Below are positions 21,476-37,438 of a stretch of DNA of 64,000 bases, one piece after another. Position 1 is the first letter of the stretch; the number at the start of each line of letters is the position of its first letter. The stretch lies in contig VXYT01000105.1 of assembly GCA_009845855.1 (NCBI GenBank), forward strand, positions 944 through 64,943, read 5' to 3'. The translations under genes and the position numbers were made by a program. The notes under the pieces were generated by a model, which ran no database searches, was not told the origin of the DNA, and saw nothing but the letters and a program-made list of their open reading frames with translations. The DNA comes from Candidatus Palauibacter ramosifaciens (GTDB lineage Bacteria; Gemmatimonadota; Gemmatimonadetes; Palauibacterales; Palauibacteraceae).

Positions 21476-23038
21476 TCATCCATCCCTCCGACGGTCCTGG
21501 GCCCGGCGCACGAGAACGAGACCGAAGGCCCCCGTCAAGAGCATGGCCAGCAGGGGCGTCACGACGACCGTGCTGGATGCCGGAGGTTCGAGCAGAATGT
21601 AGTACCACGTGCTTACGGAACTGCGCTTTCCGACCTCGGCGCTGGACCCGTCCCACGCCTGGAACGCGATGGGCGTCGGGGTGCCCTCGGCGAAGTCCAG
21701 GCCGTCGCTTTCGATTTCGATCGAGCGGCGGAGGTAGAGCGTCCAGCGCCCCTCCTCCCACGTCGCCTCTCCGGCTACCGGGTCCTCCGCGAGCGGTTCG
21801 ACGGAGTCGAGGCCGCGGCCGCGCCCCGCTCCGACGCCGGTCTCCGAATCCCACGTCCACAGGTAGACCGGCTCGCGGGCGTCGCCCATCAGGAAGTACG
21901 GCCTGTCCGTGCCCTCCGGCGGTTCGAAGGGGAACTGCAGGAGCACCGCGTCCGGGGGCCGCGAGGTCGGCGCGCCGACGCTGTCGAGCGCGATGGGTTC
22001 CGCGCCGTCCAGGTCGAGCGCGGTCGTGATCTTGTTCTGCCACTCGTCCCAGTTCGGGTCCGGGCTGTTCGATGGGTCGTTCCACTGCACGCGCAGGGCG
22101 ATGTCGTTTCCATCGTGGAGCCCCTGCACCCAGAGCCCGTCGACCGCCGGCGCGAAGTTGCGCGGCAGCTGCACGACCTGGCCGGACAGCGGGAAGTAGA
22201 AGGCCTCGACGCCCGCCCAGGCCTCCTCGCCGCCGTCGGCCGGGAGCCCGCCCTCGGCGCGTCCCACGCGGATCACGTCGCGTAGCGGCGGCATCTCGCG
22301 CGGCCCCAGCGAGGCGAGGTAGTGCGCCAGTTGCCAGACCTCGTCGGGCGAGACGACGCCCGAGTTCATGGCGTCGATGGCCGACGGCATCGGCGTGCCG
22401 TCCAGTCCGGTCAGCATGCGGGTATGCATGTCCTCGACGCTGCTGCCGCCGTTCAGGACCCATGCCTCCGTGAGGTCGGCGGCGCGAATGGGGAGGCCGC
22501 GCCAGTCCTCCAGCGTCGGCGCCGAAGTCCCGTCGCCGCGCCCCGAGAGGCCGTGGCACTCCTCGCACAGCATCGTCAGGTACGCCGCCGCCCCTGCCTC
22601 GACCGCGGCGGGACCGCCGCCGGGATCGGAGCCGAAGTCCAGCGGCTCCGGGGCCGGACCCTGGCCGAAGAACCTCGAGAAGCTCTTCAGGTAGACGATG
22701 AGGTCGTCGATCTCCCCGTCCGTGAGGTTGGGCCAGCCCGGCATCGTCGTACCCGGGAGCCCGTTCTCGATCGCGAACCGGATGTCCGCGTCCGTGGGGA
22801 GCTGCCCGCTCCCGGTCGTCCGGATCTGGTAGAGCGCCTGCGTGAAATCGCGCGGCCGCGGCAGCATCGACGCGGCGGCCGAGCCATCCCCCTGCCCGGT
22901 TTCGCCGTGACACTCCGCGCACCAGCGATCGTACACGACCTTGCCCGCGGCGGCCGCGTCTTCCTGTCCCGCGAGTGCGGACGGCGTGCCCGCGAAGAGG
23001 ACGAGGAGCACGATTCCCGTTCCGCGCGGCGCCCTCAT
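21476..23038 (-). CDS. dihaem c-type cytochrome with large C-terminal domain and C-terminal TM anchor
   Basis: Signal peptide, CAECH and CEECH, then a ~250-aa W/D-rich domain and a TM helix at the extreme C-terminus. Confidence 0.65.
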   Translation of the reverse strand: MRAPRGTGIVLLVLFAGTPSALAGQEDAAAAGKVVYDRWCAECHGETGQGDGSAAASMLPRPRDFTQALYQIRTTGSGQLPTDADIRFAIENGLPGTTMPGWPNLTDGEIDDLIVYLKSFSRFFGQGPAPEPLDFGSDPGGGPAAVEAGAAAYLTMLCEECHGLSGRGDGTSAPTLEDWRGLPIRAADLTEAWVLNGGSSVEDMHTRMLTGLDGTPMPSAIDAMNSGVVSPDEVWQLAHYLASLGPREMPPLRDVIRVGRAEGGLPADGGEEAWAGVEAFYFPLSGQVVQLPRNFAPAVDGLWVQGLHDGNDIALRVQWNDPSNSPDPNWDEWQNKITTALDLDGAEPIALDSVGAPTSRPPDAVLLQFPFEPPEGTDRPYFLMGDAREPVYLWTWDSETGVGAGRGRGLDSVEPLAEDPVAGEATWEEGRWTLYLRRSIEIESDGLDFAEGTPTPIAFQAWDGSSAEVGKRSSVSTWYYILLEPPASSTVVVTPLLAMLLTGAFGLVLVRRAQDRRRDG

Positions 23039-23826
23039 TCGTGCCCCCCTTCCTCTTCCCAGGTGCGCGGCGGGAACCCCGTCTGGTCGTAGAGATAGAG
23101 GATCACCGCCCAGATCTCGTCCTGTTCGAGGATCGTCTCCCAGGCCGGCATCGCCGAGTCCCACGGCGTCCCTTCGCGCGGAAGGCCGGGGCCGCCCTTG
23201 ACGATGCGCCAGAACACGTAGCTCTCCGTGAGCTGGGGCAGGTTGCCCGAACTCGTGAAGTCGGCGGGGACCGGGTTGAAGGCCGGCGCGTAGTGGCCCT
23301 GGCCGTCGAGCAGATCGCCGTGGCAGGGCACGCAGTTTCGCACGTAGATCCGTTTCCCGACCGCCAGGTGCTCCTCCATGGAGCCTTCCTCGCGCAGCGG
23401 ATTCTCGAGCCCCGTCAGCTCGATCGTCTCCCCGCGGAAGGTGAGCTGGTTCGGCGGCGCCGGGTGTACGGCCCGCAGCGTGGCCGGTGCGGCGTAGCTC
23501 GGCTTCACGCGCTCGTAGGCGAGCCAGCCGATGAGGACCGGGAAGGCGACCATGAGGATGCCGCGCACCGTCCGCCGGTCAGGCTGCACCATCGTCGCGC
23601 GGATCGGCTCGCGGAAGCGCTGCCACCGGTCCTCGTCCGCGCTCATGTAGAGGAGGACGCCGACGAGCACGATCAGCATGTACTCCACGATGACCGAACT
23701 CGGGACCGGCGCGCTCGCCACGCCGATCACCGGGAGGACGTAGCCGATCACGTACTCGAACGCGACGTAGGACGCCACGACGACGATCGCGCCCTGCCAG
23801 AACGGGTGGGACAGGTAACGTTTCAT
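23035..23826 (-). CDS. membrane-anchored monohaem cytochrome c
   Basis: Two N-terminal TM helices followed by a class I cytochrome c domain (CVPCH). ATGA overlap with the downstream gene. Confidence 0.65.
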   Translation of the reverse strand: MKRYLSHPFWQGAIVVVASYVAFEYVIGYVLPVIGVASAPVPSSVIVEYMLIVLVGVLLYMSADEDRWQRFREPIRATMVQPDRRTVRGILMVAFPVLIGWLAYERVKPSYAAPATLRAVHPAPPNQLTFRGETIELTGLENPLREEGSMEEHLAVGKRIYVRNCVPCHGDLLDGQGHYAPAFNPVPADFTSSGNLPQLTESYVFWRIVKGGPGLPREGTPWDSAMPAWETILEQDEIWAVILYLYDQTGFPPRTWEEEGGHE

Positions 23827-24659
23827 CGGCTACCTCCCACGCTGTCGGGCGGGACTTCCGCCGCATCGCCGGGAGCCTCCGCGCCGCCTCCCGCGCCTCC
23901 CACGAAGAAGTCCACCAGCACGTCGAGTTCCACCGGTGACATGAGATCGCCGAAGATCGTCGGCATCGTTCCGGCGAAGGTCGAGTATTCCTCGTTGATC
24001 GTCGCCATCGGATCCACGATCCCCTCGAGGACGAAAGCGGGATCCTGTCCCCGCAGTTCCTCGAAGGGGGGGGCGACCATGCCGCCCTCTCCGCCGAGCG
24101 CGTGGCAGGCGAGGCAACCCTGGGCCGTAATCAGCGCAACGGCGTCGACCTGGCTCAGGTCGGTGACGGCGACGGGCGGCGGTGCGGACGCGGCCGCGTC
24201 GTCGGCCGCCAGCGCCGCGGCGAAGTCGTCCGCGTTCACCGTGATCTCACCGCCTTGCGATTGCAGGAAGGCGACGAGCGTCCACAGCTCGGCCTGCGAT
24301 GAAACGATGCTCTGATCGATCATGATGGGGTCGAAGCCCTCCACGATGTAGGCCGTCGGGTTGACCAGAGATTCCCACAGATAGTCCTTGCAGCTTTGCC
24401 CCGGGACGCGCGTCGCGCACACGCCGCCCACCACCCCGAGGAGGTCCGGAGCGCGCGTTCCGAGCCCGTGGCACGCCGTGCAGCCGCCCGCCCCCGCGTA
24501 GATCTCCTCGCCGATCGCCGCCAGCTCCTCGGGCGGCATGTCCGCGTTGAGCACGATCTCCCGAGGGACCGCCGACTGCACCTGCGGAATCACGTTGGCC
24601 ACGAAGGTGAACACCGCCAGCGTCGCCACGACCGTGAACAGGATCTTCAGGTTCGTCAT
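23823..24659 (-). CDS. membrane-anchored dihaem cytochrome c (CcoP-like architecture)
   Basis: N-terminal TM, CTACH and CLACH haem sites separated by an Ala/Asp-rich linker. Confidence 0.7.
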   Translation of the reverse strand: MTNLKILFTVVATLAVFTFVANVIPQVQSAVPREIVLNADMPPEELAAIGEEIYAGAGGCTACHGLGTRAPDLLGVVGGVCATRVPGQSCKDYLWESLVNPTAYIVEGFDPIMIDQSIVSSQAELWTLVAFLQSQGGEITVNADDFAAALAADDAAASAPPPVAVTDLSQVDAVALITAQGCLACHALGGEGGMVAPPFEELRGQDPAFVLEGIVDPMATINEEYSTFAGTMPTIFGDLMSPVELDVLVDFFVGGAGGGAEAPGDAAEVPPDSVGGSR

Positions 24660-24738: not shown

Positions 24739-26559
24739 CTAGTCCACGTCGCCCAGGGAGGGCGCCGGCATGGGGTCCCCGAGCGCGGCGCGCCCCTCCT
24801 GTCCAGCCTTCACCTTCGCCTCGGCTTCCTGGTACACGGAGCGTTCGGCCAGGCCACCGAGCCAGAAGATGAGGCCGACGAGCCCGAAGAAGATGAGCAC
24901 GCAGATGCTGATGATCGTCGCCGCCGGCCCGAGTGCCGGGGTGAACGCCTGCTCGCTCGTGTCCCGGATCACCTCATAGACGTGCCAGTGCTGCCGGATC
25001 CCGCTGCGCGCGAAGCCCATCAGCCCCATGAGCCACGTAAACGTGACCGCGAGGATGAGGAGCGCGTACTGGGACCGGTCCGGCATCCGCCCCCACCGGA
25101 TCTCGCCTCGGGATCTGGCGCCCCGCAGCATCGCCATGTCGATGCCGATGACGAACAGGATCGTCGCCAGGACCGCGAGCACCTGGTAGACGGAGAAGCC
25201 GATCCGCACGATCGCCGTCACGAAATAGCCGTACACGCCGTAGAACACGACGATGACGGCGCACAGCGCGAAGGCCGCCCCCTGCAGCATGGTCCCCGCG
25301 CGCGCCCACGGCACCACGGGATCCTTGTTCGCCCTCCGGTACATGAGGAAGGAGAGGAACGTCGTCAGGATCATCAGGTTGACGGCCGTGTTCTTCGCGC
25401 TCATCACGCCGAGCACCTGCAGGAACGGGTGCCGGATCCCTCCCATGGCCGCGATCTCGTCCCGGTCCGCAATCATCGTATTCGGCGTGGCCCACACGAT
25501 GACCCCGAGCACGAGCACGAGCAGCATCCACTTGATGTAGGGCTGAAACCGTTCCGCCCCGGGAATCCGCCCCATCCCGATCCAAAGATAGTAGTTGCCC
25601 GCGAGGAAGAGGATGCCGATGAGGAAGGCCTGGATGATCCAGAGCCAACTCATGAAGCCGCCCATCATCGTGATGCCCATCTGCTGGCTGAACTCGTAGA
25701 TCTCCCGTCCGAGCCAGTAGCCGGCGAAGGGGAGGACGATGAGCGCGCCGATCGCGATCAGGTTGCCGGTGTAGCCCATCCAGTCGTAGTGGGCGCGTTC
25801 CTCATCCGTCTTGCTCGTGAGGAAGCGGTACGCCGCGTAGGCGCCGACGATGGCGCCGCCGAACACCACGTTCGCCAGCAGCCGGTGGATGTTGATCGGC
25901 ATCCAGGTCGCGTTGTTGATGGCGCTCCACAGCTGGACGGTCTGCGGGGCCGTATCCGCCGTGAGTCCCTCCGGCGGGCTCATCATGTAGGTGAGCCAGC
26001 CGTTCGCGATGAACATGACGATCGTGCCCCAGACGTTGAGCATGATCCCCAGGCACCAGTGGGCCTTCTTCGCCGCGCCCTTCTTCCACGCGTCCCACCC
26101 GTAGTAGTAGAGGTAGAGCGTGAAGGATTCGAGGAAGAAGAGGCCCGCGTACACCCACATCGACGGAGCGAAGATCGCCGTAAGATACGCCCAGAAGCGC
26201 GGGTAGAGCGTCGAGAGGAAGAAGACGAGGATCGCGCCCCAGATCGCGGTCGCGCTGTAGGCCACGAGGAGGAGGCGGGTGAATTCCTTCGCGAGCTTGT
26301 CGTACTTCTCGTCCCCCCCGAACATCCCGATCGCCTCGATGACGACGGCGAACATGGGCACGCCGAGCACGAAGGCGGCAAACAGCAGGTGGAGCTGGGC
26401 CGCGATCCAGACCGCGCCGCGGCGGTCGAGCCCGAGGAAGTTGAACTCTCCGTAGTCGGGTCCCGGCGCTTGCGCGAGGAGCGGGAGGGCGACCGCCAGG
26501 ACGAGGACGGCGAGCAGTACGCCGCGGGTCGCGACGCCACGGGTAATCCAGCGCTTCAT
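24739..26559 (-). CDS. cytochrome bd-type oxidase subunit I (CydA) homologue, stand-alone (no CydB)
   Basis: Helix-1 motif RGAVWIAAQLHLLF. GLFFLESFTLYLYYYGWD and KAHWCLGIMLNVWGTIVMFIANGW closely match the CydA FFLES...GWD...ANGW region. 606 aa with an extra N-terminal helix. Only the last 606 aa of ORF 24739..27192 are credible. Confidence 0.75.
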   Translation of the reverse strand: MKRWITRGVATRGVLLAVLVLAVALPLLAQAPGPDYGEFNFLGLDRRGAVWIAAQLHLLFAAFVLGVPMFAVVIEAIGMFGGDEKYDKLAKEFTRLLLVAYSATAIWGAILVFFLSTLYPRFWAYLTAIFAPSMWVYAGLFFLESFTLYLYYYGWDAWKKGAAKKAHWCLGIMLNVWGTIVMFIANGWLTYMMSPPEGLTADTAPQTVQLWSAINNATWMPINIHRLLANVVFGGAIVGAYAAYRFLTSKTDEERAHYDWMGYTGNLIAIGALIVLPFAGYWLGREIYEFSQQMGITMMGGFMSWLWIIQAFLIGILFLAGNYYLWIGMGRIPGAERFQPYIKWMLLVLVLGVIVWATPNTMIADRDEIAAMGGIRHPFLQVLGVMSAKNTAVNLMILTTFLSFLMYRRANKDPVVPWARAGTMLQGAAFALCAVIVVFYGVYGYFVTAIVRIGFSVYQVLAVLATILFVIGIDMAMLRGARSRGEIRWGRMPDRSQYALLILAVTFTWLMGLMGFARSGIRQHWHVYEVIRDTSEQAFTPALGPAATIISICVLIFFGLVGLIFWLGGLAERSVYQEAEAKVKAGQEGRAALGDPMPAPSLGDVD

Positions 26560-27968
26560 CGCTTTTCCCCCCGTCCCGCGCTCCGCCGACTGCGGGCGAA
26601 GAAGGGTATCCGTTTCGAGAAGTCCACCGGCATGGCCCGGCGGACCTCGGTCATCACGTCGACCGTCACCTCTGCGTGCCCGCGCTCGCGCGCGAACTTC
26701 TCCACACGTTCCGAAACCACGCCGCGCACGAAGCTGGGAATGGCGTTCAGCCGGGTGGCGGCCTCGGCGCTCCACGGCAGCTCCCGCTCGACCGCCGAGC
26801 CGTAGGTGACCGGCTGCCGCGGCTCGATCGCGGGCGCGATGCCGGGTGCCGGCTCGTAGGCGCAGGAAGAATCGGGACCGAGCAGGTCTCCGTCCACCGC
26901 GTAGGCGCGGGCGCGGCAGCCGCCGCACAGGGCGCGGTACTCGCAGCGCCCGCACTTGCCGCCCGGTTCGCCCTCGCGCAGCAGGCGGAAGACGGTCGCC
27001 TCGCGCCAGATCTCGCCGAAGGACGCCTCGGCGAGGTCGCCGGCCACCTCCGGCATGTACGGGCACGGCGTCACCTTGCCCTCGGGCGTGATGCGGCAGT
27101 ACTGGACGCCGCAGGGGCAGCGCGTCCGGTAGTTCAGGAGCGGCGAGTCCGGGTCCCGTTCGTACACGTGCCGCATGAGTTGCGGCTGGCACTTGGAGCG
27201 GATCATCAGCCGCCCGCGGTAGTCTCGCTGGAGTTCGGCCAGCCGGGCCACGATCTCGTCGTTCTCCTCGGGGGCGAGTCCGCGCATTCCCTCTCCCCTG
27301 CCCGTCTCGACGAGGAAGTAGACGTTGAGGCAGACCGCGCCCTTCGCGTCCGCCCAGGCGGCGATCGCATCGAGTTCGTCCCGGTTCCCGCGCGTGACGG
27401 TGAACTGGATGAGGAAGTCGAGCCGGTGCTCGGCCAGCCGATCGACCGCGGCGAGTGTGTCCTCGAGCGCGCCCTCGCCGTGCCGGAAGCGGTCGTGATA
27501 GCGCGAGTCGAGGGAGTCGACGCTGAGGGCAACGCCCTGCACGCCGGCCGCCTTGAGCGAGGCGATGCGTTCATCGGTGAGCCCGGTGCCGTTCGTGCCC
27601 ACGGTCACTGTGGCGCCGCGCTCGGCGGCGTAGGCGGCGATCTCCTCGAGGTCGGAGCGCACGAGCGGCTCCCCCCCGCTGAGGATGAGGAGCGGCGACG
27701 GACTCGTTTCGAGGATCTGGTCGATGACGCGGAAGCAGGCCGCGGTATCGAGTTCGTCCCCGTCCGCGTGCCACGATCCGGCGGAGATGTAGCAGTGCGC
27801 GCAGGCGAGGTTGCAGCGGCGCGTAAGGTTCCAGGCGACCACGTGCGGGATCGCGACATCGGGTTCGGCCCGCGGAGACCCGGCGGCGGAGGCGCCGTCC
27901 CAGAGCGAACCGGGCACGGCCGGGCTCCGGTTCGCGACGGCTTCCGCGGCCAGCGGGGCCCCGGTCAC
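26556..27968 (-). CDS. radical SAM/SPASM-domain enzyme with C-terminal PCP_red-like module
   Basis: CNLACAHCY radical-SAM cluster motif; Cys-rich SPASM/twitch region (CPCG...CGRCEYRALCGGC). C-terminal LPWSAEAATRLNAIPSFVRGVVSERVEKFARERGHAEVTVDVMTEVRRA. GTG start overlaps the upstream TGA; stop overlaps the cydA-like ATG. Confidence 0.75.
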   Translation of the reverse strand: MTGAPLAAEAVANRSPAVPGSLWDGASAAGSPRAEPDVAIPHVVAWNLTRRCNLACAHCYISAGSWHADGDELDTAACFRVIDQILETSPSPLLILSGGEPLVRSDLEEIAAYAAERGATVTVGTNGTGLTDERIASLKAAGVQGVALSVDSLDSRYHDRFRHGEGALEDTLAAVDRLAEHRLDFLIQFTVTRGNRDELDAIAAWADAKGAVCLNVYFLVETGRGEGMRGLAPEENDEIVARLAELQRDYRGRLMIRSKCQPQLMRHVYERDPDSPLLNYRTRCPCGVQYCRITPEGKVTPCPYMPEVAGDLAEASFGEIWREATVFRLLREGEPGGKCGRCEYRALCGGCRARAYAVDGDLLGPDSSCAYEPAPGIAPAIEPRQPVTYGSAVERELPWSAEAATRLNAIPSFVRGVVSERVEKFARERGHAEVTVDVMTEVRRAMPVDFSKRIPFFARSRRSAGRGEKR

Positions 27969-30262
27969 TTCGCGCGTGACCCCTGCTCCGAAGCGGGACG
28001 GACGTCCGCTCCCGACTCTTCGCCCAGTTCGGTGCGCGCGAACTTCTCGACCGCCGCGCGGGCATCGTCGGGCGACACCATCTTGAAGTCGACGGGACAG
28101 TCCGCCGCCTGCTGCTCGATGTCGCGGATCGGACAGCGCGTTACGCCGGAAGCCTTCGCTTCCTCGATGAAGCGCTTCATCTCCTCGCTCATGCCGTCGA
28201 CGCCGGCAGCTTCGGCCCGCGCCTGCTTCGCCTTCAACTCGTTGAACATCACGAGCATCGTGTCGAGGTCGAACTCGTCGGCCGCGATCATCGCGTCCTT
28301 GTTCTCGTCCATCACGACGGTCGTCACGCGCCACATGCCCTGGTCGCGGGCGAAGCGCTCCACCGTGTTCCGAGCGAGGGGGCGGGCGATCAGCGGCACG
28401 CGCCCCAGCCGCTCGAACGCCTCGTGCGTCCACACGATCGGGTCGGCGTCCGTGCGGTCGCGGGGGATCTGGTTGTCCGTGACCGGACACTTCGCCATCA
28501 CGGGGAGGGGGGCCTCGAAGGCGTCCGCGTCGCTCGTCTCCACGACGGTGCGCTTCATCGCCTCACCCGCCTTCACCTCCGCGAGGGCGAGCTCCTCGGC
28601 GTCACCGATCCCCATCACGAGCTGCATGTGGGTCGGAAGGAGCTTCTTGATCGCCTCGTCCAGGCGCTCGTTCGTCACCACGGGCAACTGGTCGCGGTTC
28701 CAGAGTTCCGTCTTCTCCGCCTTCCCCCGCCCGTTGGCGGCCTGTCCGACCTCGGCGATCGACGGGGCCGCGCCGGTCTCCAGCGCGTCGCGCGCCACCT
28801 TCGCGGTGCCGCTCGCCCCATTGCCGGCCGCGGCGTTTCCATCGGCCGGCGGCGACGCCGCCCGGTACTGCTTCTCGTCCTTCGGGTTCGGGACGAAGGC
28901 GGCCGCGTAACGGCTCCCGGGGCCATAGTGTTCGAGGACGAACTCCTCGACGGCCTTGCGGGCGATCCCCAGGGCGAAGGGCGGCACGCGCAGGATCCTC
29001 ACCTCCGCCTCGGGTGCCCACTCGAGCCCGGCCTCGCCGTCCTCCTCGATCCAGGGGATCTCCTCCGGCCGGACGTTCCCGGTCCCGAGGAGGAGGATGT
29101 TCGTATCCGCGAGCGAGACGAGGTTGTCGGCCTGCGAGCCGATGTCCGTGCCCTCGATGCGGTGCGAGCCGTGGCGGGCCACGACGATGAGGGACGGATC
29201 GATCTCCTCGGCCCACTTGAGGAGCACGTCGAACGGCTTCCCGACCAGCACCTGGGTCTCGATGTCGACCTCGGGATACTCGCTCGCCATCACCTCGGCC
29301 CGCTTGATGTTCGCCTTGCAGAGGCGGAGGAGGCCCTTGTCGATGATGTTGTTGTGGAGCTCTTCCTGCTCCTCGAACTTGAACACCTTCGAGGCCTGGA
29401 CGGAGAGCACGTCCTTGATGTTGTGGAAGACGACGTGGTGGTACTGCACGTCGAAGGCGCTTGCGATGTAGACCGTGGCGCCGTATTCGCGCGCCATTTC
29501 GAGCGCGATCCTCAGGCCCTTGTAGGCGTAGGCCGACCCGTCCACGCCGACGAGCCACTTGCCGCCCTCCAGCGGCCGGTCGTCGCGAACGATGAGCGCG
29601 TCCTTTTCGATCCCGCGGAGCGCGCGCGCCACGACGCCGCCGAGGCGGCTCCGTTCCTGCCTCCCGAGACCGTGGGCGCCGATGGTGACGAGGTCGTAGT
29701 CGCGGCCGGAGGTACCCGCGAGCTTGTCCTCCTGCTCTTCGTCCTCGGCCACGAGCCGGCCGTTCTCGCCCAGCTTGACGTCCGCCCGCTGCTTTTCGCT
29801 GCCGTCGTAGTTGTGGGCGATGTTGGGGTCGAAGCCGATGAGGCTCGGGAGACGTCCGCCGCCGCGGTTCGCCTCGTTGATGATCTCCTCGTAGTTGATG
29901 CCCTCGAGGAGCTGCCGCGTGAGGGTCACCCCGGCTTCGGAGCAGCGGCGGTGGAGCTGGTCCAGGAAGCTGTCCGAGATGAGTTGCAGCCCCTTCTCGA
30001 TCAGCTTGTCGTGGATCTTGCGCTGCCTGCGGATCTCCGCCGGCTCCTGGAACTGGGCCGGGAGCCCGATCTCGAGCTGGCGGAACCGGATGTCGTGGAG
30101 GCGCGCGGCGTAGACGTGAGAGCCGGTGATGCGGCCCCCGGAGCGAGCGCAGAGTTCGATGGCTCGGTCCACGGCCCAGTCCGACTCGCGCGAGTTATCG
30201 ACCGGGACGAATACCTCTCGATACATGGCGCTCCGTTGGACGGCATGCTGCGGCCGGTTCAC
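27965..30262 (-). CDS. multidomain protein: tandem universal-stress-protein (UspA) domains plus PCP_red-like repeats
   Basis: UspA-like segments (VFVPVDNS...; YDLVTIGAHGLG; LIVVARHGSHRIEGTDIGS). Two C-terminal copies of the W-x-x-EA-x-x-RL-x-x-P-x-x-x-R-x-x-x-x-x-x-E-x-FAR-x-xG motif. Confidence 0.55.
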   Translation of the reverse strand: MNRPQHAVQRSAMYREVFVPVDNSRESDWAVDRAIELCARSGGRITGSHVYAARLHDIRFRQLEIGLPAQFQEPAEIRRQRKIHDKLIEKGLQLISDSFLDQLHRRCSEAGVTLTRQLLEGINYEEIINEANRGGGRLPSLIGFDPNIAHNYDGSEKQRADVKLGENGRLVAEDEEQEDKLAGTSGRDYDLVTIGAHGLGRQERSRLGGVVARALRGIEKDALIVRDDRPLEGGKWLVGVDGSAYAYKGLRIALEMAREYGATVYIASAFDVQYHHVVFHNIKDVLSVQASKVFKFEEQEELHNNIIDKGLLRLCKANIKRAEVMASEYPEVDIETQVLVGKPFDVLLKWAEEIDPSLIVVARHGSHRIEGTDIGSQADNLVSLADTNILLLGTGNVRPEEIPWIEEDGEAGLEWAPEAEVRILRVPPFALGIARKAVEEFVLEHYGPGSRYAAAFVPNPKDEKQYRAASPPADGNAAAGNGASGTAKVARDALETGAAPSIAEVGQAANGRGKAEKTELWNRDQLPVVTNERLDEAIKKLLPTHMQLVMGIGDAEELALAEVKAGEAMKRTVVETSDADAFEAPLPVMAKCPVTDNQIPRDRTDADPIVWTHEAFERLGRVPLIARPLARNTVERFARDQGMWRVTTVVMDENKDAMIAADEFDLDTMLVMFNELKAKQARAEAAGVDGMSEEMKRFIEEAKASGVTRCPIRDIEQQAADCPVDFKMVSPDDARAAVEKFARTELGEESGADVRPASEQGSRAK

Positions 30263-30439
30263 GCTGCTCGCACCAGCCTCGCCCGGGTGCGAAGCCCGGA
30301 TGTACGCAGCTCGCGAAAGTCGGCCACGGACGAGGAATTCGGCGATGCTGGTTCAAGGCCTTCGGGGTCGCCCGGAGGTCCGGACCCCCGCTTATGGGCC
30401 AAGAAGTTGCGGTTGACCACGGGGAAAGTCAAACGCGGT

Positions 30440-31147
30440 CTAGGGAGTTCGCGGCCAGCGGAGGCGGCGGCTCCAATCCGAGGCGAAAACGGCGGCCCCG
30501 AAGGTCGCGCCGGCCGCAACGAGAAGGCTTGGCAGCCAGACGGAAGCCTCCATGGGCATCCCGCTGGTGCCGGCCGTGAGCGCGGCCCGCAGCGGCGTGT
30601 ACGGATTCCACTCGGCGACGAGGGAGGTCCAGCCGGGAACGGGGGTCCGGAAGAAGCCGGCGAGGTGAAGGAGGAGAAGGGAAAGCGCCGCGGAAGCGAG
30701 GGCCGCTTCGGCGAGCGAGCGCACCGCGGCCGCCACGAGGGGACCCAGCAGGTTCGCGAACCACAGCGTCGCGAGGACCGACAGGAGGACAACGGGACCC
30801 GCGCCTGCTCCGCCGGCCGACCACAGGAGGACGAGGGCGGCGGGCGCAAGCTGGAGCGCGTCGATCGTCGTGCCGGCGAGCGTGCGCTCGAGGAACCAGC
30901 GGGGCGCGGAGTAGCCGGTGCGGAGGATCTCATCGAGCCAGCCGTCTCGGGCGTCGCGCACAGCCGGAATGGCTGAACCGAAAGCTCCGAAAAAGACGAT
31001 GAACACGCCGAAGACTGCGACCCGGTGCGGCGCCGCGGCTGCGCTGAGGGCGACAGGCGTGAGGAGGAGGAGCGGGACCGCGACGTTCCACAGAAACAAC
31101 CGCCGCCGCCGGAGGGCGGTGCGCCACGCCAGACGCCAGATCGTCAC
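30440..31147 (-). CDS. ABC-2 type transporter permease
   Basis: 235 aa, six hydrophobic helices, downstream of the ABC ATPase with a 4-nt overlap. Confidence 0.5.
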   Translation of the reverse strand: MTIWRLAWRTALRRRRLFLWNVAVPLLLLTPVALSAAAAPHRVAVFGVFIVFFGAFGSAIPAVRDARDGWLDEILRTGYSAPRWFLERTLAGTTIDALQLAPAALVLLWSAGGAGAGPVVLLSVLATLWFANLLGPLVAAAVRSLAEAALASAALSLLLLHLAGFFRTPVPGWTSLVAEWNPYTPLRAALTAGTSGMPMEASVWLPSLLVAAGATFGAAVFASDWSRRLRWPRTP

Positions 31148-32091
31148 CGGGCGCGCCCTTCCAGACGCCGGCCCGTGAGCGTCGCGAACGCGTCCGCAAG
31201 ATCGGGTTCCCGGACATCGACGGAGGCGACGGAGGCGCCGCCGCGCAGGACCCAGGCCAGCGTCTCCGGGAGGGCCCGGCTCGGGTCCTCGACCCTAAGG
31301 ATCACCGCGCTCTCGTCCCAGGCCGACGCGCGCACCGCCGGCGGCGCGGGGCCGAGTGTGTCGGGATCGGGACTCTTCCCGGCGGCAAACCGGATCTCGA
31401 CGCGCGGACGGGCGCCGACGCGCTCCAGGAGCCGGGCCGGGGTATCCGCCACCGCGCAGCGGCCATCGACGATGAACGCGACGCGGTCGCAGTGCGCCGC
31501 GGCGAAGGCGGGATCATGGGCGGACAGCACGGAGGTCTTCCTGGCCGCGCGGTGGTCGGCGAGGGCTTCGGCGAAGGCCTCCCGCCCGCCGGGGTCGAGC
31601 CCGGCCAGCGGTTCGTCGAGGAGGAGGAGGGGGGCCGCGGTACCGAACGCGGTCGCGAGGGCAAGCCGTCTCCGCATACCGCTCGAGTAGGTGCCGGCGG
31701 GGCGGTCCGCGTCGGCCTCGAGCCCGAAGCGCGCGAGCCAGGCGTTGGCCGTAGCACGCGCCTCGCCGGACCCCGCGCCGTGGAGTTCGAGCAGGATGGC
31801 CGCGTTTTCACGCCCGCTGAGCCACGTGCGGAGGGCGGGCCGGTCGGTGGCGAGCCAGCGCTTTCGGGCATCGTCGACGCCGGCGGTCCGTCGCATCCCC
31901 GGAACGCCGTCGCCGCCGAGGAGGCGGAGGAAGGTCGATTTTCCGGATCCGTTCGGGCCGAGGAGCGCGAGGCACTCTCCCTCGCGGACTTCGAGCGAGA
32001 GGTCCTTGAGGGCGGGACTCCCATCGGGGTAGCGGTAGGCGACCGCCTCCGCCGTCACCAGCAGCGGCTTCGCCCCTGCGCCGGGGCTCAC
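31144..32091 (-). CDS. ABC transporter ATP-binding protein
   Basis: Walker A GPNGSGKST; signature SSGMRRRLALA; Walker B LLLDEP. GTG start overlaps the ferredoxin TGA. Confidence 0.8.
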   Translation of the reverse strand: MSPGAGAKPLLVTAEAVAYRYPDGSPALKDLSLEVREGECLALLGPNGSGKSTFLRLLGGDGVPGMRRTAGVDDARKRWLATDRPALRTWLSGRENAAILLELHGAGSGEARATANAWLARFGLEADADRPAGTYSSGMRRRLALATAFGTAAPLLLLDEPLAGLDPGGREAFAEALADHRAARKTSVLSAHDPAFAAAHCDRVAFIVDGRCAVADTPARLLERVGARPRVEIRFAAGKSPDPDTLGPAPPAVRASAWDESAVILRVEDPSRALPETLAWVLRGGASVASVDVREPDLADAFATLTGRRLEGRAR

Positions 32092-32381
32092 GGAACGATC
32101 TCGATCCCGTCTTCCAGGACGGTGATCGCGTCGACCGGGCAGGACGCGCACGCCTCGATGAAACGCTGCCGCGAGGCGTGTTCGGGTCCGGTGAAGACCG
32201 CCACTCCATCCTCATCGAGATCGAAGGCCTCCGGCGCCTCCTCAATACAGTCCCCGAAGCCGACGCACAGGTCACGGTCGATGACGGCGCGAACCCCGTG
32301 GACCTCCCGCTCCACGGACGGGTCCGGCGTCCCCGTCCCCTCACCCGCATCTCCCACGCCTGCGCCGCCGTCCGTCACCAC
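32088..32381 (-). CDS. small ferredoxin-like protein (single [4Fe-4S]/[3Fe-4S] type)
   Basis: C-x-G-x-G-x-C...C-x-x-CP pattern (DLCVGFGDCIE...ACASCPVDAI). Confidence 0.5.
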   Translation of the reverse strand: MVTDGGAGVGDAGEGTGTPDPSVEREVHGVRAVIDRDLCVGFGDCIEEAPEAFDLDEDGVAVFTGPEHASRQRFIEACASCPVDAITVLEDGIEIVP

Positions 32382-32384
32382 CGG

Positions 32385-32828
32385 CTACATGCCTTCCAGC
32401 CCGAGATCGGAGCGGGCACGATCCATGACGGCGGGCGTCATTTCCTCGATCCCGCGCTCCCGGGCGTATTCGTTGTAGATCTTCTTCACCATCCCCCGCA
32501 CGAAGGAGGGTACGTGGCCGAGCCGCTCGACCGCATCCACGTTCCAGCGCACGGGTCCGGGGTTCGTCAACGGCGCTGCGGGCAAGGCTTCGTCGCGCGG
32601 GTCCTCCACGCCGGCGCGAATGCCCTCGAAGTTCTCGTTCGGGACGGTCCGACCTCCCACCTTCACGCCGAGCGAACTCACGAGTTGCGTCTCCATGGGG
32701 TTGGCGAGCATCGCCGTCTTCCGCCCGCAGGCGGGGCACCTGAAGACGGCGGCCATTGTGCCGTCGCCGGGTACGGCCCGCTCGTCGAAGGCCATCTGCC
32801 GGTCGCACTCCACGCAGAGGAACTTCAT
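32385..32828 (-). CDS. zinc-ribbon protein with PCP_red-like module
   Basis: CVECDRQ...CPACGRK zinc ribbon, then VRWNVDAVERLGHVPSFVRGMVKKIYNEYARERGIEEMTPAVMDRAR. ATG at 32828. Confidence 0.5.
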   Translation of the reverse strand: MKFLCVECDRQMAFDERAVPGDGTMAAVFRCPACGRKTAMLANPMETQLVSSLGVKVGGRTVPNENFEGIRAGVEDPRDEALPAAPLTNPGPVRWNVDAVERLGHVPSFVRGMVKKIYNEYARERGIEEMTPAVMDRARSDLGLEGM

Positions 32829-33715
32829 CGCGTCGCGGGCGCCGCGCGGAGCACGTCGACCATCGTCCGGACGGCTTCCGCTGTGGGCCCTCCACCAGCC
32901 AGCCATTCCTCAAGCCGCCCCTCGTCCGCCGCGGCCCCCAACGCCGCGTCGAAGGGGAGTCGCGCGAGCAGCGGGGCCCGAAAGCGCTCCGCCAGCTCGG
33001 CCCCGGCGTTTCCGGCGTGCAGCGGCGCGAGCCCCCCGCAGGCGTCGCAGCGAACCCCCGACAGGTTCTCCACGAGTCCCGGCATGGGGAGGCCGCGTCT
33101 CCGGGCGAGATCGAGCGAGCGGGCCACGGCATCGCGGGAAGCCGCGCTCGGGATGGTGACCGCGATGATGCCCGCCAGTCCGGGGACGAGCGCGTGAAGC
33201 TCGGCGAGGCGCTGGGTGCCAGGTGGCAGGTCCACGAGCAGCACATCCAGCTCTCCCCACGCGACATCCGACAAAAATTCGCGCAGAGCCCCCCGCTCCT
33301 GGGCGCCGCGCCACACGAAACCGGCGTCGGCGGGCTCGCGCCACGTGAGGGCGCGGTCCGGCTCCATGAGAAACGCCATCGACATGACGCGGACCCCGGC
33401 GCGCGAGGAGGGCGGCGCGAATCCGTTCCGGGATTCGGCGAGGACTCCGGGCTCGATGCCGAGGAGGCGCGGCACGCTGGGGCCGTTCAGGTCGGCGTCG
33501 ACCAGGCCCACGCGATCCCCGCGGCGGGCGAGCGCGGTCGCGAGGAGGCCGGAGACGAGGCTCTTCCCCACGCCGCCCTTGCCGCTCATCACCGCGATGA
33601 CCCGGGCGACGGAAGCGAGCCGCACGGACACGCGCTCGTCCCCCGCCGCGATCTGGTCGGGGAGATCCGAACGCAGTTCGTCCACTTCGTGGTAGGTGCG
33701 AAATCCGGAACTCAT
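32825..33715 (-). CDS. apbC: Mrp/NBP35/ApbC-family Fe-S cluster carrier ATPase
   Basis: Deviant Walker A GKGGVGKS; CxxC (CDACGG) Fe-S bridging motif. Confidence 0.8.
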   Translation of the reverse strand: MSSGFRTYHEVDELRSDLPDQIAAGDERVSVRLASVARVIAVMSGKGGVGKSLVSGLLATALARRGDRVGLVDADLNGPSVPRLLGIEPGVLAESRNGFAPPSSRAGVRVMSMAFLMEPDRALTWREPADAGFVWRGAQERGALREFLSDVAWGELDVLLVDLPPGTQRLAELHALVPGLAGIIAVTIPSAASRDAVARSLDLARRRGLPMPGLVENLSGVRCDACGGLAPLHAGNAGAELAERFRAPLLARLPFDAALGAAADEGRLEEWLAGGGPTAEAVRTMVDVLRAAPATR

Positions 33716-33983: not shown

Positions 33984-34256
33984 ATGTTCGAAAGACGGAT
34001 CGAAGTCCACCGTGAATCGGAACATCCCATGTCGATCATCGGGTTTCACCGTTTTCTCATCGCAACGGCCATCGTCTTCTGCGCCGTCTTCGCCGCGTGG
34101 GAGTTCCGGATCTTCGCGAGCGCCGGGAGTCTCGGGGCGCTCGCGATCGGTGTGATCTTCGCGCTCGCGGCGGCGGCGCTGGCCTACTATCTCGCCAACC
34201 TGGCCAGGTTCCTGGACGGAACGCGGCACGAGTCCCCGTGGCACCGGGGTCGGTGA
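33984..34256 (+). CDS. small two-TM membrane protein
   Basis: MSIIGFHRFLIATAIVFCAVFAAWEF...ALAIGVIFALAAAALAYYL; start at ATG 33984 or 34029. Confidence 0.35.
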   Translation: MFERRIEVHRESEHPMSIIGFHRFLIATAIVFCAVFAAWEFRIFASAGSLGALAIGVIFALAAAALAYYLANLARFLDGTRHESPWHRGR

Positions 34257-34882
34257 GGCGCGAGGACCGGGCGGACGGAGGCCGGCCGGTTGTACTCTAT
34301 TTCGCGGCCGCCGTGTTCCTGTTCATCCTCGTCGTCGTCGTTGCCGGCTCGTTCACGAGGCCCGACCCCGTCACCTTCGTTCCAACGCCCGTCGCCCTGC
34401 GCGCCCCCGTGGACCGGTTCGTCGTGGACACGGTCACCGTCGATGCCCGGGACGGCTCGCGATGGGTCTACTTCGATTTCGACCGGGGGAGCGCGGTCGC
34501 CGGCCCGCTCGCCGGCTGGGATCTCGCGCTCAACCGGTATCACGTCGTCGTGAACGGCGGCGCCGGATACCCCGGGGCCGGCGGAGCGATCGCCATCGGC
34601 GCGCCGTGGGAAACCGTGACCGAGGCCCCGGCGTCCGGTTACGCGACGACGGAGGGCGCGCTGGAGGATGGCCCGGCGACGCCCGGACTCGAGCGCTGGT
34701 ACCGGTACGGGTTCTTCTCCCACCTCCTCGAACCGAAGGACGAGACGTACGTGATCCGGACGGCGGAGGGTGGCTACGCGAAGCTGAGGATCCTGAGCTA
34801 TTACTGCCCGCAGGCGACGCCCGGATGCGTGACCCTCATGTACGGCTTTCAGGGAGACGGTTCGCGGCGCCTCACGGACTGA
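34253..34882 (+). CDS. membrane-anchored hypothetical protein
   Basis: GTG overlaps the upstream TGA; N-terminal TM (VVLYFAAAVFLFILVVVVAGSF) then ~180-aa soluble domain with no clear family. Confidence 0.4.
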   Translation: MRREDRADGGRPVVLYFAAAVFLFILVVVVAGSFTRPDPVTFVPTPVALRAPVDRFVVDTVTVDARDGSRWVYFDFDRGSAVAGPLAGWDLALNRYHVVVNGGAGYPGAGGAIAIGAPWETVTEAPASGYATTEGALEDGPATPGLERWYRYGFFSHLLEPKDETYVIRTAEGGYAKLRILSYYCPQATPGCVTLMYGFQGDGSRRLTD

Positions 34883-35849
34883 GCCGGCGTGCCCGCTCCA
34901 CGAGGCCGGACGCCCCCGCCTCGACCAACTGTTCCGCCAGCCGGCGGCCGAGTGCGCCGGGCGAAGCGCGAGACCCCGTACCGGCCGCTTCGACCGGGGG
35001 GCCACCGTCCACGTCGTAGACGGCCGCGCGGAGCAGGAGGTCCTCCGCCCGCAGTGACGCGCGGGCGGCGATGGGAACCCGGCATCCACCTTCGAGCGCC
35101 GCGAGCAGTGCCCGCTCGGCGGTCGTCTCCGCCCGGGCGGCCGGATCGTCGAGCGCCCCGATGCGCGCGGCCGCTCCGTCCGGCCCGTCGCGACACTGGA
35201 GCCCGAGCGCACCTTGACCGGGGGCCGGTAGCCAGTCCTCATCGAGGACGTGGGCGCCGGGGGGCCACACGCCGAGCCGCCGGAGCCCGGCCGCCGCCAG
35301 GACCAGCGCCTCGAAGCGGCCGTCCTCCAGCTTGTGGAGCCGCGTGTCGACATTCCCGCGGATCGGCCGCGGATCGAGGTCGGTCCGGGCGGCGCGCAAC
35401 TGAGCGGCGCGGCGCAACGACGACGTGCCGACGCGCGCGCCGGAGGGGAGGCGTCGCAGAAGGTCGCGTCCATCCGCGTCCCGGGGCGCGGAGTCCGGCG
35501 GATTCCGAACCGCGAGATTCCGAACCACGAGCACGTCCCGGGGATCTTCGCGGGTCGGGACGGCGCCCAGCATCAACCCGTCGGGGAGGTCCGCCGGCAG
35601 ATCCTTCAGGGAGTGCACCGCGACATCGATGTCTCCTTCCCGGAGCGAGCGTTCGAGGTCTTCGGTGAACAGCCCCTTCCCTCCGATCTCCGGAAGCGGC
35701 GTCGCGAGATCGCGGTCCCCGGCAGTGGTGATGAACCGGTATTCAACGGGCAGCTCGGGCCAGCGTTCGCGCAGCCGTTCGCCCACCCAGGCGGCCTGCG
35801 CCCGGGAGAGCGGTGACCGCCGCGCCCCGACCACGAGCGGCGCATTCAC
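34872..35849 (-). CDS. hemC: hydroxymethylbilane synthase (porphobilinogen deaminase)
   Basis: VGARRSPLSRAQA...GKGLFTEDLE...SLKDLP and GGCRVPIAA motifs. Confidence 0.85.
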   Translation of the reverse strand: MNAPLVVGARRSPLSRAQAAWVGERLRERWPELPVEYRFITTAGDRDLATPLPEIGGKGLFTEDLERSLREGDIDVAVHSLKDLPADLPDGLMLGAVPTREDPRDVLVVRNLAVRNPPDSAPRDADGRDLLRRLPSGARVGTSSLRRAAQLRAARTDLDPRPIRGNVDTRLHKLEDGRFEALVLAAAGLRRLGVWPPGAHVLDEDWLPAPGQGALGLQCRDGPDGAAARIGALDDPAARAETTAERALLAALEGGCRVPIAARASLRAEDLLLRAAVYDVDGGPPVEAAGTGSRASPGALGRRLAEQLVEAGASGLVERARRLSP

Positions 35850-37438
35850 CGCCGGCCGACGTGTCCCAGCACGCCGAGAATGGCCGCCCGGTCAACCTTC
35901 CCCACGCCGGTGAGCGGCATCTCCTCCACGAGCGCGATGCGCCGGGGGTGCGCGTACGCGGGTCCGCGCTCGAGCGTGTAGCGCTTGAGCGATTCGGCCG
36001 TGGCCCTCGCCTCCGGCCCGAGTCTGACCACCGCGGCCGGGACCGCGCCCTTGAGGGCGTGGGGCACGGGCACGACAGCCGCCTCGCGGACATCAGGATG
36101 GGACAGCAGCAGGTCCTCCACCTCCTTGGGATAGATGTTCTCGCCGCCCGAGTTGAACATGTCGTCGGTGCGGCCGCGGAAGTAGTAGAAGCCCTCCCCG
36201 TCGCGGAAGAAGAGGTCGCCCGTGGCGAGCCAGCCGTCCCGGATCCGGGCCGCGTTGACCGCGGGCAGGTTGTGATAGCCGGTCGTGACGCCGGGATTCC
36301 GAACCCACAGCTCACCGTACTCCGGATCTTCGCGGCCGTCGCGCACGAGCCTGATCTCTCCCTCGGGCCACGCCGTACCGCAGCTTCCCCTCGGAGTCGG
36401 ACGTCCGTCGCGCGCAGGCCCGATCATGACCGGTCCGCCCTCTGTGAGCCCGTAGCTCTCGCCGACTTCAACGCCGAACGCGCGCTCGACCGCGTGCATC
36501 AGTTCGGGCTGCACCGGGGCGGATCCCAGCGTGACCTTCCGGAGCGCCGAGAAATCCAGCTCCGCGATCAGGTCCATGCGATCCAGGATCATCGCGAACA
36601 CGGCGGGGACGGCCCCCACCTGCGTACACCGGTACTCGCTGAGGGCCCGCAGGAAGGATTCCGGGGAGAAGCCGGGAAGAACGACGACCGAAGCCCCGGC
36701 CTGCAGCAAGGGCTTGATGGCCCCGGCCATCGCGTTCTTGTGGTAGAGGGGCACGGCGACGAGCGCCCGGTCGCCCGGGGCGGCGGGCCAGTACTTCCGC
36801 AGGCACCGCACCCACCAGAGCTGCCCTTCGTGGGAGAGGACAACGCCCTTGGGCTTGCCCGTCGACCCCGACGTGTAGGGCTGGAAGGCCGGGTGGCCGG
36901 CGCCGAGCCTCGGAGGGTCGAACCGGGCCGGTGATCCCCCGAGCGCGCGCTCGTAGTCCAGCCACTCGGCGCTGCCTGGTTCGAGCCTCCGGCCGGCCCC
37001 GCCGACGTCCCACCTTGTCTCGATTCCCGACTGTTCGACGACCGCGGCCGAGCGCTCCGTGACGGCGGTCTCGACGAAGGCGGCCCGGCAGGCCGCGTCC
37101 CGCACGATGTGGGCGAGCGACGCCGCCGACAGCTTGAAGTTGAGGGGCACCGGGACAGCCCCGCAGCGCATCCCGCCGAAGAGGATTTCGACGAACTCGA
37201 AGCGGTTCCCGACACTCAGCGCAAACCGGTCGCCGGCTCCGATACCGGCATCCGAGAGCAGGTTGGCCACGCGATCCATCCGCTCGTTCAGTTCGGCGTA
37301 GGTGACCTCGCGGGGGACGGGACGTGAAAGGTCGATGAGCGCGACGCGGCCGGGGAAAGCCTCGGCCGCTTCGCGGAGCCAGTATCCGAGGTTGGCATCG
37401 CGGCCGCGGGAACCGTCGGCCCGCCCGGCGCCGCTCAC
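35846..37438 (-). CDS. AMP-dependent synthetase/ligase (acyl-CoA synthetase family)
   Basis: YTSGSTGKPKGV AMP-binding motif; GYG-TE...; GTGA-type start at 37438. Confidence 0.8.
   Translation of the reverse strand: MSGAGRADGSRGRDANLGYWLREAAEAFPGRVALIDLSRPVPREVTYAELNERMDRVANLLSDAGIGAGDRFALSVGNRFEFVEILFGGMRCGAVPVPLNFKLSAASLAHIVRDAACRAAFVETAVTERSAAVVEQSGIETRWDVGGAGRRLEPGSAEWLDYERALGGSPARFDPPRLGAGHPAFQPYTSGSTGKPKGVVLSHEGQLWWVRCLRKYWPAAPGDRALVAVPLYHKNAMAGAIKPLLQAGASVVVLPGFSPESFLRALSEYRCTQVGAVPAVFAMILDRMDLIAELDFSALRKVTLGSAPVQPELMHAVERAFGVEVGESYGLTEGGPVMIGPARDGRPTPRGSCGTAWPEGEIRLVRDGREDPEYGELWVRNPGVTTGYHNLPAVNAARIRDGWLATGDLFFRDGEGFYYFRGRTDDMFNSGGENIYPKEVEDLLLSHPDVREAAVVPVPHALKGAVPAAVVRLGPEARATAESLKRYTLERGPAYAHPRRIALVEEMPLTGVGKVDRAAILGVLGHVGRR

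Follow-up and report, generated by a model that had tools for sequence, protein, structure and literature searches.

A conserved cytoplasmic gene module is encoded on the minus strand of a 64-kb stretch of the Candidatus Palauibacter ramosifaciens genome (contig VXYT01000105.1, positions 944 to 64,943; the whole stretch of 64,000 nucleotides is called the window below, and coordinates refer to it). The core of the module consists of an AhbD-like radical S-adenosylmethionine (SAM) enzyme, a tandem universal stress protein (USP), a rubredoxin-like Zn-ribbon protein, and an ATPase of the Mrp/NBP35 type. A ferredoxin and, in some lineages, an ATP-binding cassette (ABC) exporter of the ABC-2 type accompany these four, and the module is embedded in terminal-oxidase operons. 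The reading we favor, with a confidence a little short of even, is that the enzyme is an O2-independent tetrapyrrole decarboxylase of the AhbD type, which would be assembled through PCP_red domains with scaffold, redox, and iron-sulfur (Fe-S) partners and would serve the adjacent oxidases.

PCP_red domains recur in three products of one gene run

A sequence-only reading of this stretch had described a motif that occurs four times in three adjacent gene products and had likened it to the C-terminal module of BchB/ChlB. All three peptides quoted there were located on the minus strand, and a search with Pfam PF08369 (PCP_red; 45 positions, gathering score 32.5 bits) bore out the resemblance. PF08369 exceeds its gathering score in three minus-strand products, over profile positions 1–45: the radical SAM enzyme (56.0 bits, E 4e-15), the USP protein (53.2 bits, in two stretches), and the Zn-ribbon protein (47.2 bits). 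Three copies are full. Copy 1 lies at the C-terminus of the radical SAM enzyme (26664–26780, minus strand), copy 2 belongs to the Zn-ribbon protein (32436–32552, minus strand) and aligns to the Protein Data Bank (PDB) entries 2KRU and 2XDQ_B 457–510, and copy 3 covers residues ~596–640 of the USP protein (28322–28438, minus strand), where the predicted local distance difference test score (pLDDT) is 82–87.

The fourth copy, in the USP protein at residues ~400–433 (28928–29029, minus strand), is the second stretch reported by Pfam and is truncated. It covers just positions 4–33 of a custom hidden Markov model (HMM) built from the three full copies and scores 16.4 bits. Because it is almost invariant across ~70 orthologues, we regard copy 4 as a real, diverged PCP_red module, so that the count of four stands with one copy incomplete. 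When the three-copy HMM was searched against the six-frame translation of the whole window, no further copy was found at E < 0.6, and the recurrence is therefore specific to the three products. Given the Pfam E-values and this window-wide scan, we rejected chance or low sequence complexity as the source of the repeat.

In PDB searches, the segment aligns with the C-terminal domain of BchB solved in isolation (2KRU), with ChlB 457–510 (2XDQ), and with the standalone protein Asr4154 (2L09), and NCBIfam models of BchB match only with their last ~50–70 residues. The motif common to the three products is a true three-helix domain of the PCP_red family. It is the same 45-residue domain as in BchB/ChlB and Asr4154 and has the conserved motif W..A..L...P.F.R......ARE.G in common with them. 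Unlike BchB/ChlB, the module carries this domain on radical SAM, USP, and Zn-ribbon proteins that have no nitrogenase-like body: Pfam detects no Oxidored_nitro domain in them, and the models for subunit B of DPOR (dark-operative protochlorophyllide oxidoreductase; TIGR01278 and NF002789, thresholds of at least 490–509 bits) match over profile positions ~457–535 only, with 31–38 bits. The module also differs from DPOR in lacking BchN, BchL, and any chlorophyll genes.

A 'PVDF' motif follows PCP_red in the tails of both the radical SAM enzyme (26556–26630, MPVDFSKRxPFF) and the USP protein (28095–28130, CPVDF). The tail is invariant in the clade of the window, yet it is present in just 5/42 representative clusters; as a lineage-specific trait it was rejected as a general feature of the family.

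The window has a G+C content of ~70%, and gene starts were chosen from G+C at third codon positions together with inspection of start codons. Every module gene is on the minus strand. Read as transcribed, the run begins with acyl-CoA ligase and HemC genes, a divergent HmuY-like gene, the Mrp/NBP35-type ATPase gene, and the Zn-ribbon-PCP_red gene. It continues with ferredoxin, ABC ATPase, ABC-2 permease, tandem-USP-PCP_red, and radical SAM/SPASM-PCP_red, and ends with CydA-like, three cytochromes c, CarboxypepD_reg, COX2, COX1, COX3, COX4, and haem O synthase. Positions 26556–33715 span exactly from the stop codon of the radical SAM gene to the ATG of the Mrp/ApbC-like gene. The overlapping stops and starts noted earlier were confirmed at four junctions: ATGA between Mrp and Zn-ribbon genes (32825–32828), GTGA between USP and radical SAM genes (27965–27968), ATGA between radical SAM and CydA-like genes (26556–26559), and GTGA between ABC ATPase and permease genes (31144–31147). 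The module genes are translationally coupled. The neighbors named in that reading, i.e., the ApbC-like, ferredoxin, ABC, CydA-like, and cytochrome c genes, were all found as described.

An AhbD-like radical SAM enzyme in a clade of its own

The enzyme (470 aa; 26556–27968, minus strand) starts with a GTG codon that overlaps the USP stop codon. It belongs to the radical SAM/SPASM proteins (PF04055, 94 bits; PF13186, 32.5 bits; SPASM fold) and carries PCP_red (PF08369) at its C-terminus. Its best NCBIfam matches, over the full length, are NirJ2 (TIGR04055, 272 bits) and AhbD (TIGR04545, 267 bits), against an equivalog cutoff of 500 bits; AhbD and NirJ2 are always the top full-length matches, and AhbC and NirJ score far below them. 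The match to NirJ of haem d1 synthesis (TIGR04051) reaches 172.6 bits against a cutoff of 515. The enzyme is thus not confidently classified as AhbD or NirJ, a classification that would have spoken against the sequence-only reading.

Two cysteine patterns, CX3CX2C at C52/C56/C59 and CX2CX5CX2CX17C at C339/C342/C348/C351/C369, are invariant in 79 family members. The auxiliary-cluster motif of AhbD is CX2CX5CX2CX17C, and the NirJ form is CX2CX5CX20-21C (PMC10114771). Both the radical SAM pattern and the auxiliary-cluster pattern of the window enzyme are as in AhbD.

PCP_red-bearing enzymes from distant loci reach 280–298 bits on the AhbD model, and no enzyme with PCP_red exceeds 346 bits on the AhbD or NirJ2 model. 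Plain relatives without PCP_red score 350–421 bits on AhbD, and one of them passes NirJ2 at 533 bits. A neighbor-joining tree limited to the catalytic core puts 26 of the 28 representatives that bear PCP_red into a single clade of 29 tips. In this tree, the PCP_red-bearing enzymes are set apart from plain AhbD in a clade that is nearly monophyletic. The nearest genomes are those of Candidatus Palauibacter, which are sponge-associated Gemmatimonadota, with 94% identity of the radical SAM protein.

The AlphaFold2 (AF2) model of the enzyme has a pLDDT of 83 and a predicted template modeling score (pTM) of 0.83. Its PCP_red domain reaches a pLDDT of 92–97 and the linker ~89–93, which is consistent with PCP_red packing on the catalytic core rather than hanging on a flexible tether. 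Three enzymes of 600–713 aa from Nitrospinota, Nitrosomonadales, and a Joint Genome Institute (JGI) metagenome (P0124, P0135, and P0140) have 2–3 tandem C-terminal PCP_red domains.

Partner proteins of the enzyme

The USP protein (753 aa; 27965–30226, minus strand; PF00582 and PF08369) combines a tandem of USP domains with two PCP_red modules and a Cys-Pro-rich tail. PF00582 matches it in two stretches with 106 bits, which places it among the USP proteins. It is near-invariant across ~70 orthologues, including C579, C697, and C710, and databases name it just 'universal stress protein' or 'hypothetical'. AF2 predicts both USP domains and the second PCP_red with confidence and the remainder poorly.

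The Zn-ribbon protein (147 aa; 32385–32828, minus strand; PF08369 47.2 bits) joins a rubredoxin-like four-cysteine site to PCP_red. Its cysteines C5, C8, C31, and C34 are unchanged in all of 68 orthologues. The family counts 4,706 matches, for which the Prokaryotic Genome Annotation Pipeline (PGAP) gives just the name 'PCP reductase family protein'. In two other loci (L107:7442-9343 and L117:11772-13721), a USP protein with three PCP_red stretches also contains a rubredoxin-like domain (PF21349). By its domain composition, this fusion is a Rosetta-stone link between the USP-PCP_red and Zn-ribbon-PCP_red genes of the window.

The ATPase (296 aa; 32825–33715, minus strand; PF10609, 206 bits) is a P-loop Fe-S carrier of the Mrp/NBP35/ApbC type. 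Its Walker A sequence GKGGVGKS is conserved, a CxxC motif (C223, C226) is kept in at least 80% of orthologues, and its nearest structures are the Fe-S carrier 3KB1/6OBY and CFD1. PF10609, Walker A, and CxxC together place it in this carrier family; it remains below the NCBIfam cutoffs for MrpORP (NF041136; 211 bits against 450) and ApbC (136 against 348). It further differs from known Mrp, ApbC, and NBP35 proteins in being translationally coupled to a PCP_red protein, and we found no description of such a pairing for other Mrp proteins. The two genes overlap or abut also in Thermoanaerobaculia, Nitrospinota, and Rokubacteria.

The single-cluster ferredoxin (97 aa; 32088–32381, minus strand; PF13370/PF13459) was found in the cluster in 65 loci, in variable positions. 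The optional ABC pair comprises an ATPase (31144–32151, minus strand; PF00005), whose nearest NCBIfam models DrrA, NodI, and CcmA are all below cutoff, and an ABC-2 type permease (30440–31147, minus strand; PF01061) that co-varies with it. The pair is missing from ~1/3 of related loci and may export haem or a precursor.

Directly upstream of the module, on the same strand, lies the gene for HemC (porphobilinogen deaminase; 34872–35849, minus strand; PF01379, 234 bits). A protein of the HmuY-like haem-binding family with an N-terminal membrane anchor (34097–34882, plus strand; PF14064, 55–57 bits) is transcribed divergently from the module, and its gene was found in most loci having enough upstream flank. 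The position of HemC is kept in the Palauibacter clade; in the Longimicrobiales locus L003, HemA and HemB stand there instead.

The CydA-like gene stands in an operon that fits the OR-N2 type

The gene that overlaps the radical SAM stop codon with its ATG encodes a 606-aa, CydA-like membrane protein of OR-N2 type (24739–26559, minus strand; PF01654, 81.9 bits). It matches PF01654 solely over profile positions 8–247 of 418, i.e., the N-terminal part, contains 12 or more hydrophobic segments, and lacks CxxCH. Three cytochrome c genes follow on the minus strand (23823–24659, 23035–23829, and 21476–23164) with two, one, and two CxxCH motifs, respectively, and the third cytochrome is fused to an EB_dh (EbdC-like) domain (48 bits). 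OR-N2 operons have been described as a CydA homologue with multiple cytochromes c and an EbdC-like subunit (Murali, Gennis & Hemp, bioRxiv 10.1101/2021.01.16.426971). The window fits this description, with the N-terminal part of PF01654, many transmembrane helices, three cytochromes c, and EB_dh. It differs from it in the upstream accessory module, which is kept with the operon in 80/80 loci here, whereas the module terms that we searched are absent from that paper: 'radical SAM', 'universal stress', and 'nirJ' do not occur in its supplements, nor does 'radical SAM' in its main text. An aa3-type oxidase operon comes next (CarboxypepD_reg, COX2, COX1, COX3, COX4, and CtaB; 16053–21401, minus strand), and it is kept downstream in 65/65 loci.

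The module is conserved as a unit next to respiratory genes

When one genome was scanned for each species, relatives turned up in at least 274 species-level genomes. We compared the best 80 loci by tblastn, with denominators that count the loci with enough flank to judge, and divided loci by the type of their radical SAM enzyme into a Gemmatimonadota type (at least 63% identity), a distant PCP_red type (below 55%), and plain AhbD/NirJ-like loci. The last came from a metagenome scan with a generic pattern and served as negative control.

Gemmatimonadota-type loci have, adjacent to the enzyme, USP-PCP_red in 80/80, Mrp in 66/66, the CydA-like gene in 80/80, cytochrome c in 69/69, and COX1 in 65/65 cases; the ABC pair alone is dispensable. 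The genes are thus not scattered in relatives and form a tightly conserved module. Among the distant PCP_red-type loci, in which tblastn with window queries may miss very divergent neighbors, the figures are 16/18 for USP-PCP_red, 9/14 for Mrp, 4/12 for CydA-like, 6/12 for cytochrome c, and 2/4 for COX1. None of these neighbors occurs beside the plain AhbD/NirJ-like genes (USP-PCP_red 0/15, Mrp 0/8, CydA-like 0/14, cytochrome c 0/10, COX1 0/1).

The identical full gene order is present in Candidatus Rokubacteria and in one further metagenome contig, and six other lineages have rearranged or partial versions of the module. A Thermoanaerobaculia contig keeps the same genes in another arrangement. 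Nitrospinota combine cytochrome c, DUF420, Mrp, PCP_red, USP-PCP_red, and radical SAM-PCP_red genes and have no CydA-like gene. In Dehalococcoidia, the USP and radical SAM pair is linked to CydA-like, cytochrome c, cupredoxin, and SCO1 genes, in Binatia to cytochrome c/EB_dh and CarboxypepD_reg genes, and in a metagenome locus (L107) it lies inside a COX2, COX1, CtaA, CtaB, COX3 operon. On a Nitrosomonadales contig (L086) it stands beside genes for cytochrome c, an Amino_oxidase-family protein, and Peripla_BP_2; a deltaproteobacterial contig (L085) keeps the pair alone, away from oxidase genes. Linkage to CydA-like, cytochrome c, or COX genes thus recurs in at least five lineages, in differing arrangements.

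The same loci yielded some minor observations. In the Thermoanaerobaculia locus (L001:9143-9962), an inserted toxin-antitoxin pair of the Polbeta/HepT-like kind separates the PCP_red gene from the radical SAM gene. On the Nitrosomonadales contig, the Amino_oxidase-family flavoprotein (L086:7845-9284; the family includes CgoX/HemY) comes right after radical SAM-PCP_red and is followed by DAHP synthase and Peripla_BP_2 genes. In Longimicrobiales, a multi-pass membrane protein of 123–137 aa is encoded after the PCP_red gene (L002:5383-5754 and L003:7171-7584), and the two are 63% identical to each other. Small open reading frames (ORFs) beside the enzyme in distant loci were considered as a conserved part of the module or a precursor peptide and were rejected: they are hydrophobic and, except for L002/L003, unrelated, and none is present in the window. 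Three metagenome-assembled genomes labeled Gammaproteobacteria contain the full Gemmatimonadota-type cluster (L043, L052, and L060); these labels probably reflect mis-binning and not the true distribution.

A putative tetrapyrrole decarboxylase with dedicated partners

To our knowledge, side chains of tetrapyrroles are the target of all characterized members of the AhbC/AhbD/NirJ group. Five observations together make an O2-independent tetrapyrrole decarboxylase of the AhbD type the best supported reading of the enzyme: its AhbD-type motifs, its distinct clade, the obligate USP-PCP_red partner, the frequent Mrp, ferredoxin, and rubredoxin-like partners, and the haem-related neighbors. Among these neighbors, HmuY is found in most loci; the others are HemC in the window, HemA/HemB in L003, CtaA/CtaB in L107, and the Amino_oxidase-family and Peripla_BP_2 genes in L086. 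The sequence-only reading had proposed a maturation or electron-delivery system for a metallo- or haem cofactor; the haem or tetrapyrrole side of that proposal is the one that the evidence favors.

AhbD converts coproheme to haem b and needs both an electron donor and an electron acceptor (PMC10114771, PMC13564367). By analogy, the window enzyme would carry out the O2-independent oxidative decarboxylation of tetrapyrrole propionate side chains, with coproheme to haem b as the default reaction and coproheme as the probable substrate, and the haem produced would be supplied to the oxidases and cytochromes encoded alongside. The PCP_red modules could be a shared handle for interaction, by which the enzyme would be held together with the small redox protein and its USP scaffold. 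Mrp would load or repair the three [4Fe-4S] clusters of the enzyme, and the ferredoxin and the rubredoxin-like domain would give or take electrons for the radical SAM cycle. The substrate, the haem supply, and the assembly by PCP_red are inferred from the comparisons above, and so are the parts played by Mrp, ferredoxin, and USP. The sequence-only reading set the system apart from ordinary housekeeping; the enzyme could still be the only O2-independent haem b synthase of the cell.

Several points weigh against this proposal. The enzyme remains far below the AhbD cutoff (267 vs 500 bits) while plain relatives reach 350–533 bits, and its substrate may therefore differ from coproheme. Apart from HemC, no genes of the coproporphyrin-dependent (CPD) or siroheme pathways were found within the 64-kb window. 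Radical SAM enzymes are O2-sensitive, and their placement in an aa3 oxidase operon is thus unexpected. A few PCP_red-bearing enzymes stand without USP or haem-related neighbors (L093 and L095). The docking of partner proteins, which the sequence-only reading ascribed to this domain, found no confirmation in the accessible DPOR papers and reviews, which describe neither contacts nor a role of the BchB C-terminal domain in DPOR, and binding of PCP_red to another PCP_red or to a partner is presumed.

The sequence-only reading also had the module feed directly into the CydA-like and cytochrome c genes. As a description of the gene order in the window this is correct. Specificity for the bd-like protein did not hold up, since the pair occurs without a CydA-like gene in Nitrospinota, Deltaproteobacteria, and Nitrosomonadales. 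Electron delivery into the bd-like protein found no support, and the pair is present in a plain haem-copper oxidase operon as well.

An unlikely alternative to the oxidase-serving decarboxylase is ordinary housekeeping. The enzyme would then be AhbD in its general role of O2-independent haem b synthase, USP-PCP_red and Zn-ribbon-PCP_red would be regulators or stabilizers, e.g., nucleotide- or hypoxia-sensing ones, and a special link to the oxidases would not exist. JGI auto-annotation does call the enzyme an 'AdoMet-dependent heme synthase', the AhbD-type motifs are present, and HemC, HemA, and HemB adjoin in some loci. AhbD, too, occurs without AhbA/B/C in some bacteria, and where it stands alone in CPD-pathway bacteria it is the presumed anaerobic replacement of ChdC (PMC13564367). 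The core pair is, moreover, away from oxidase genes in L085. Against this, the enzyme does not reach the equivalog cutoff of AhbD and sits in a clade of its own, and plain AhbD-like genes show none of the neighbors of the module. Linkage to CydA-like, cytochrome c, or COX genes in that many lineages, in varied arrangements, is hard to put down to coincidence.

We give little credence to a role in haem tailoring, by which the enzyme would make a non-canonical haem or a modified haem b for the OR-N2 protein, the EB_dh domain, or the aa3 oxidase, and the optional ABC-2 exporter and the HmuY-like protein would move the product to the periplasmic side. Such a role would agree with the divergence of the enzyme from true AhbD, with the overlap of its stop codon with the CydA-like start, with the CydA-like gene adjoining in 80/80 loci and in the same order in Rokubacteria, and with the co-location of HmuY-like and exporter genes. 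However, loci L084-L086 have the module and no CydA-like gene, in L107 it lies in an operon with COX genes only, and the exporter is missing from ~1/3 of loci.

In a further alternative, which we consider doubtful, the Mrp-like ATPase would dock on PCP_red as BchL does on BchNB, and ATP would drive low-potential electrons or clusters into the radical SAM enzyme. BchB is the sole characterized home of PCP_red and is the partner of the NifH-like ATPase BchL. Mrp is of the same P-loop (SIMIBI) class and keeps Walker A and the CxxC bridging-cluster motif, and the Mrp and Zn-ribbon-PCP_red genes overlap or abut in four lineages. Contact between the BchB C-terminal domain and BchL is, however, not described in accessible texts, Mrp is missing near the pair in 5/14 distant loci, and proteins of the Mrp/NBP35 family are known as cluster carriers, not reductases. 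Extended by analogy, PCP_red might be a general docking handle for Fe-S ATPases of the NifH/BchL class, with DPOR-like logic applied to an AhbD-like enzyme that makes or tailors haem for the bd-like (OR-N2) and aa3 oxidases. The chance of this is slim; if true, it would provide functions all at once for the 'PCP reductase family proteins', an orphan Mrp clade, and the OR-N2 accessory genes.

A protein or peptide maturase that modifies an oxidase subunit, a cytochrome, or a small peptide, like anSME, PqqE, or SkfB, is highly improbable: Foldseek does rank the peptide-modifying SPASM folds of SkfB, PqqE, SuiB, and anSME closest to the AF2 model and small ORFs do lie beside the enzyme in some distant loci, but the fold ranking is uninformative since AhbD and NirJ are not represented in the PDB, AhbD is favored by sequence similarity as well as by the Cys motif, and the small ORFs encode the unrelated hydrophobic proteins described above, none of them in the window.

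Relation to known systems

The radical SAM enzyme of the module resembles AhbD and NirJ2 in the radical SAM and SPASM domains, in full-length alignment, and in both cysteine patterns. It differs from them in its scores and its clade and in carrying 1–3 C-terminal PCP_red domains, whereas plain AhbD-like enzymes have none. Window-type enzymes are obligately paired with USP-PCP_red and usually with Mrp, in terminal-oxidase operons; plain AhbD-like enzymes are not. What is new is thus an AhbD-like enzyme with an added domain, fixed partners, and a fixed respiratory context. The sequence-only reading had called the system undescribed, and our searches of the accessible literature indeed gave no paper describing the module. 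They also found no functional description of PCP_red, PF08369, IPR013580, or Asr4154, or of a combination of haem synthase, USP, and oxidase.

The module defines a widespread AhbD-like clade, and its Zn-ribbon partner family has more than 4,700 members. For the completion of haem without ChdC in anaerobes and microaerophiles, AhbD-like enzymes have so far been presumed to act, and the module is a concrete candidate with an electron and Fe-S supply of its own. It gives PCP_red a first functional context outside chlorophyll synthesis, and the labels 'PCP reductase family protein' or 'universal stress protein', now on thousands of these proteins, are misleading. For the biochemically uncharacterized OR-N2 bd-like oxidases, it represents a set of conserved accessory genes.

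Other genes in the window

Upstream of HemC, the same gene run includes an acyl-CoA ligase (35846–37558). Further upstream lies a multi-subunit cluster resembling an Mrp-type cation/proton antiporter or a membrane-bound hydrogenase (MBH), with three Proton_antipo_M subunits, MbhD/E, and MnhE (40629–48203, minus strand); an ORF with an Nramp domain and an ORF for a Zn-dependent dehydrogenase stand between this cluster and the acyl-CoA ligase gene. The window also encodes the selenocysteine-specific elongation factor SelB (56627–58567, minus strand), and the organism therefore probably makes selenoproteins.

On the other side of the oxidase operon, the haem O synthase gene is followed by an ORF for a polytopic membrane protein of 361 aa without a Pfam match (14838–15923, minus strand), which was considered as CtaA and rejected because it has no similarity to it. 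A 1,110-aa protein encoded beyond it (10803–14135, minus strand) combines a region like transporters of the major facilitator superfamily (MFS/TLC-like) with HEAT repeats and a C-terminal cyclic-nucleotide-binding domain.

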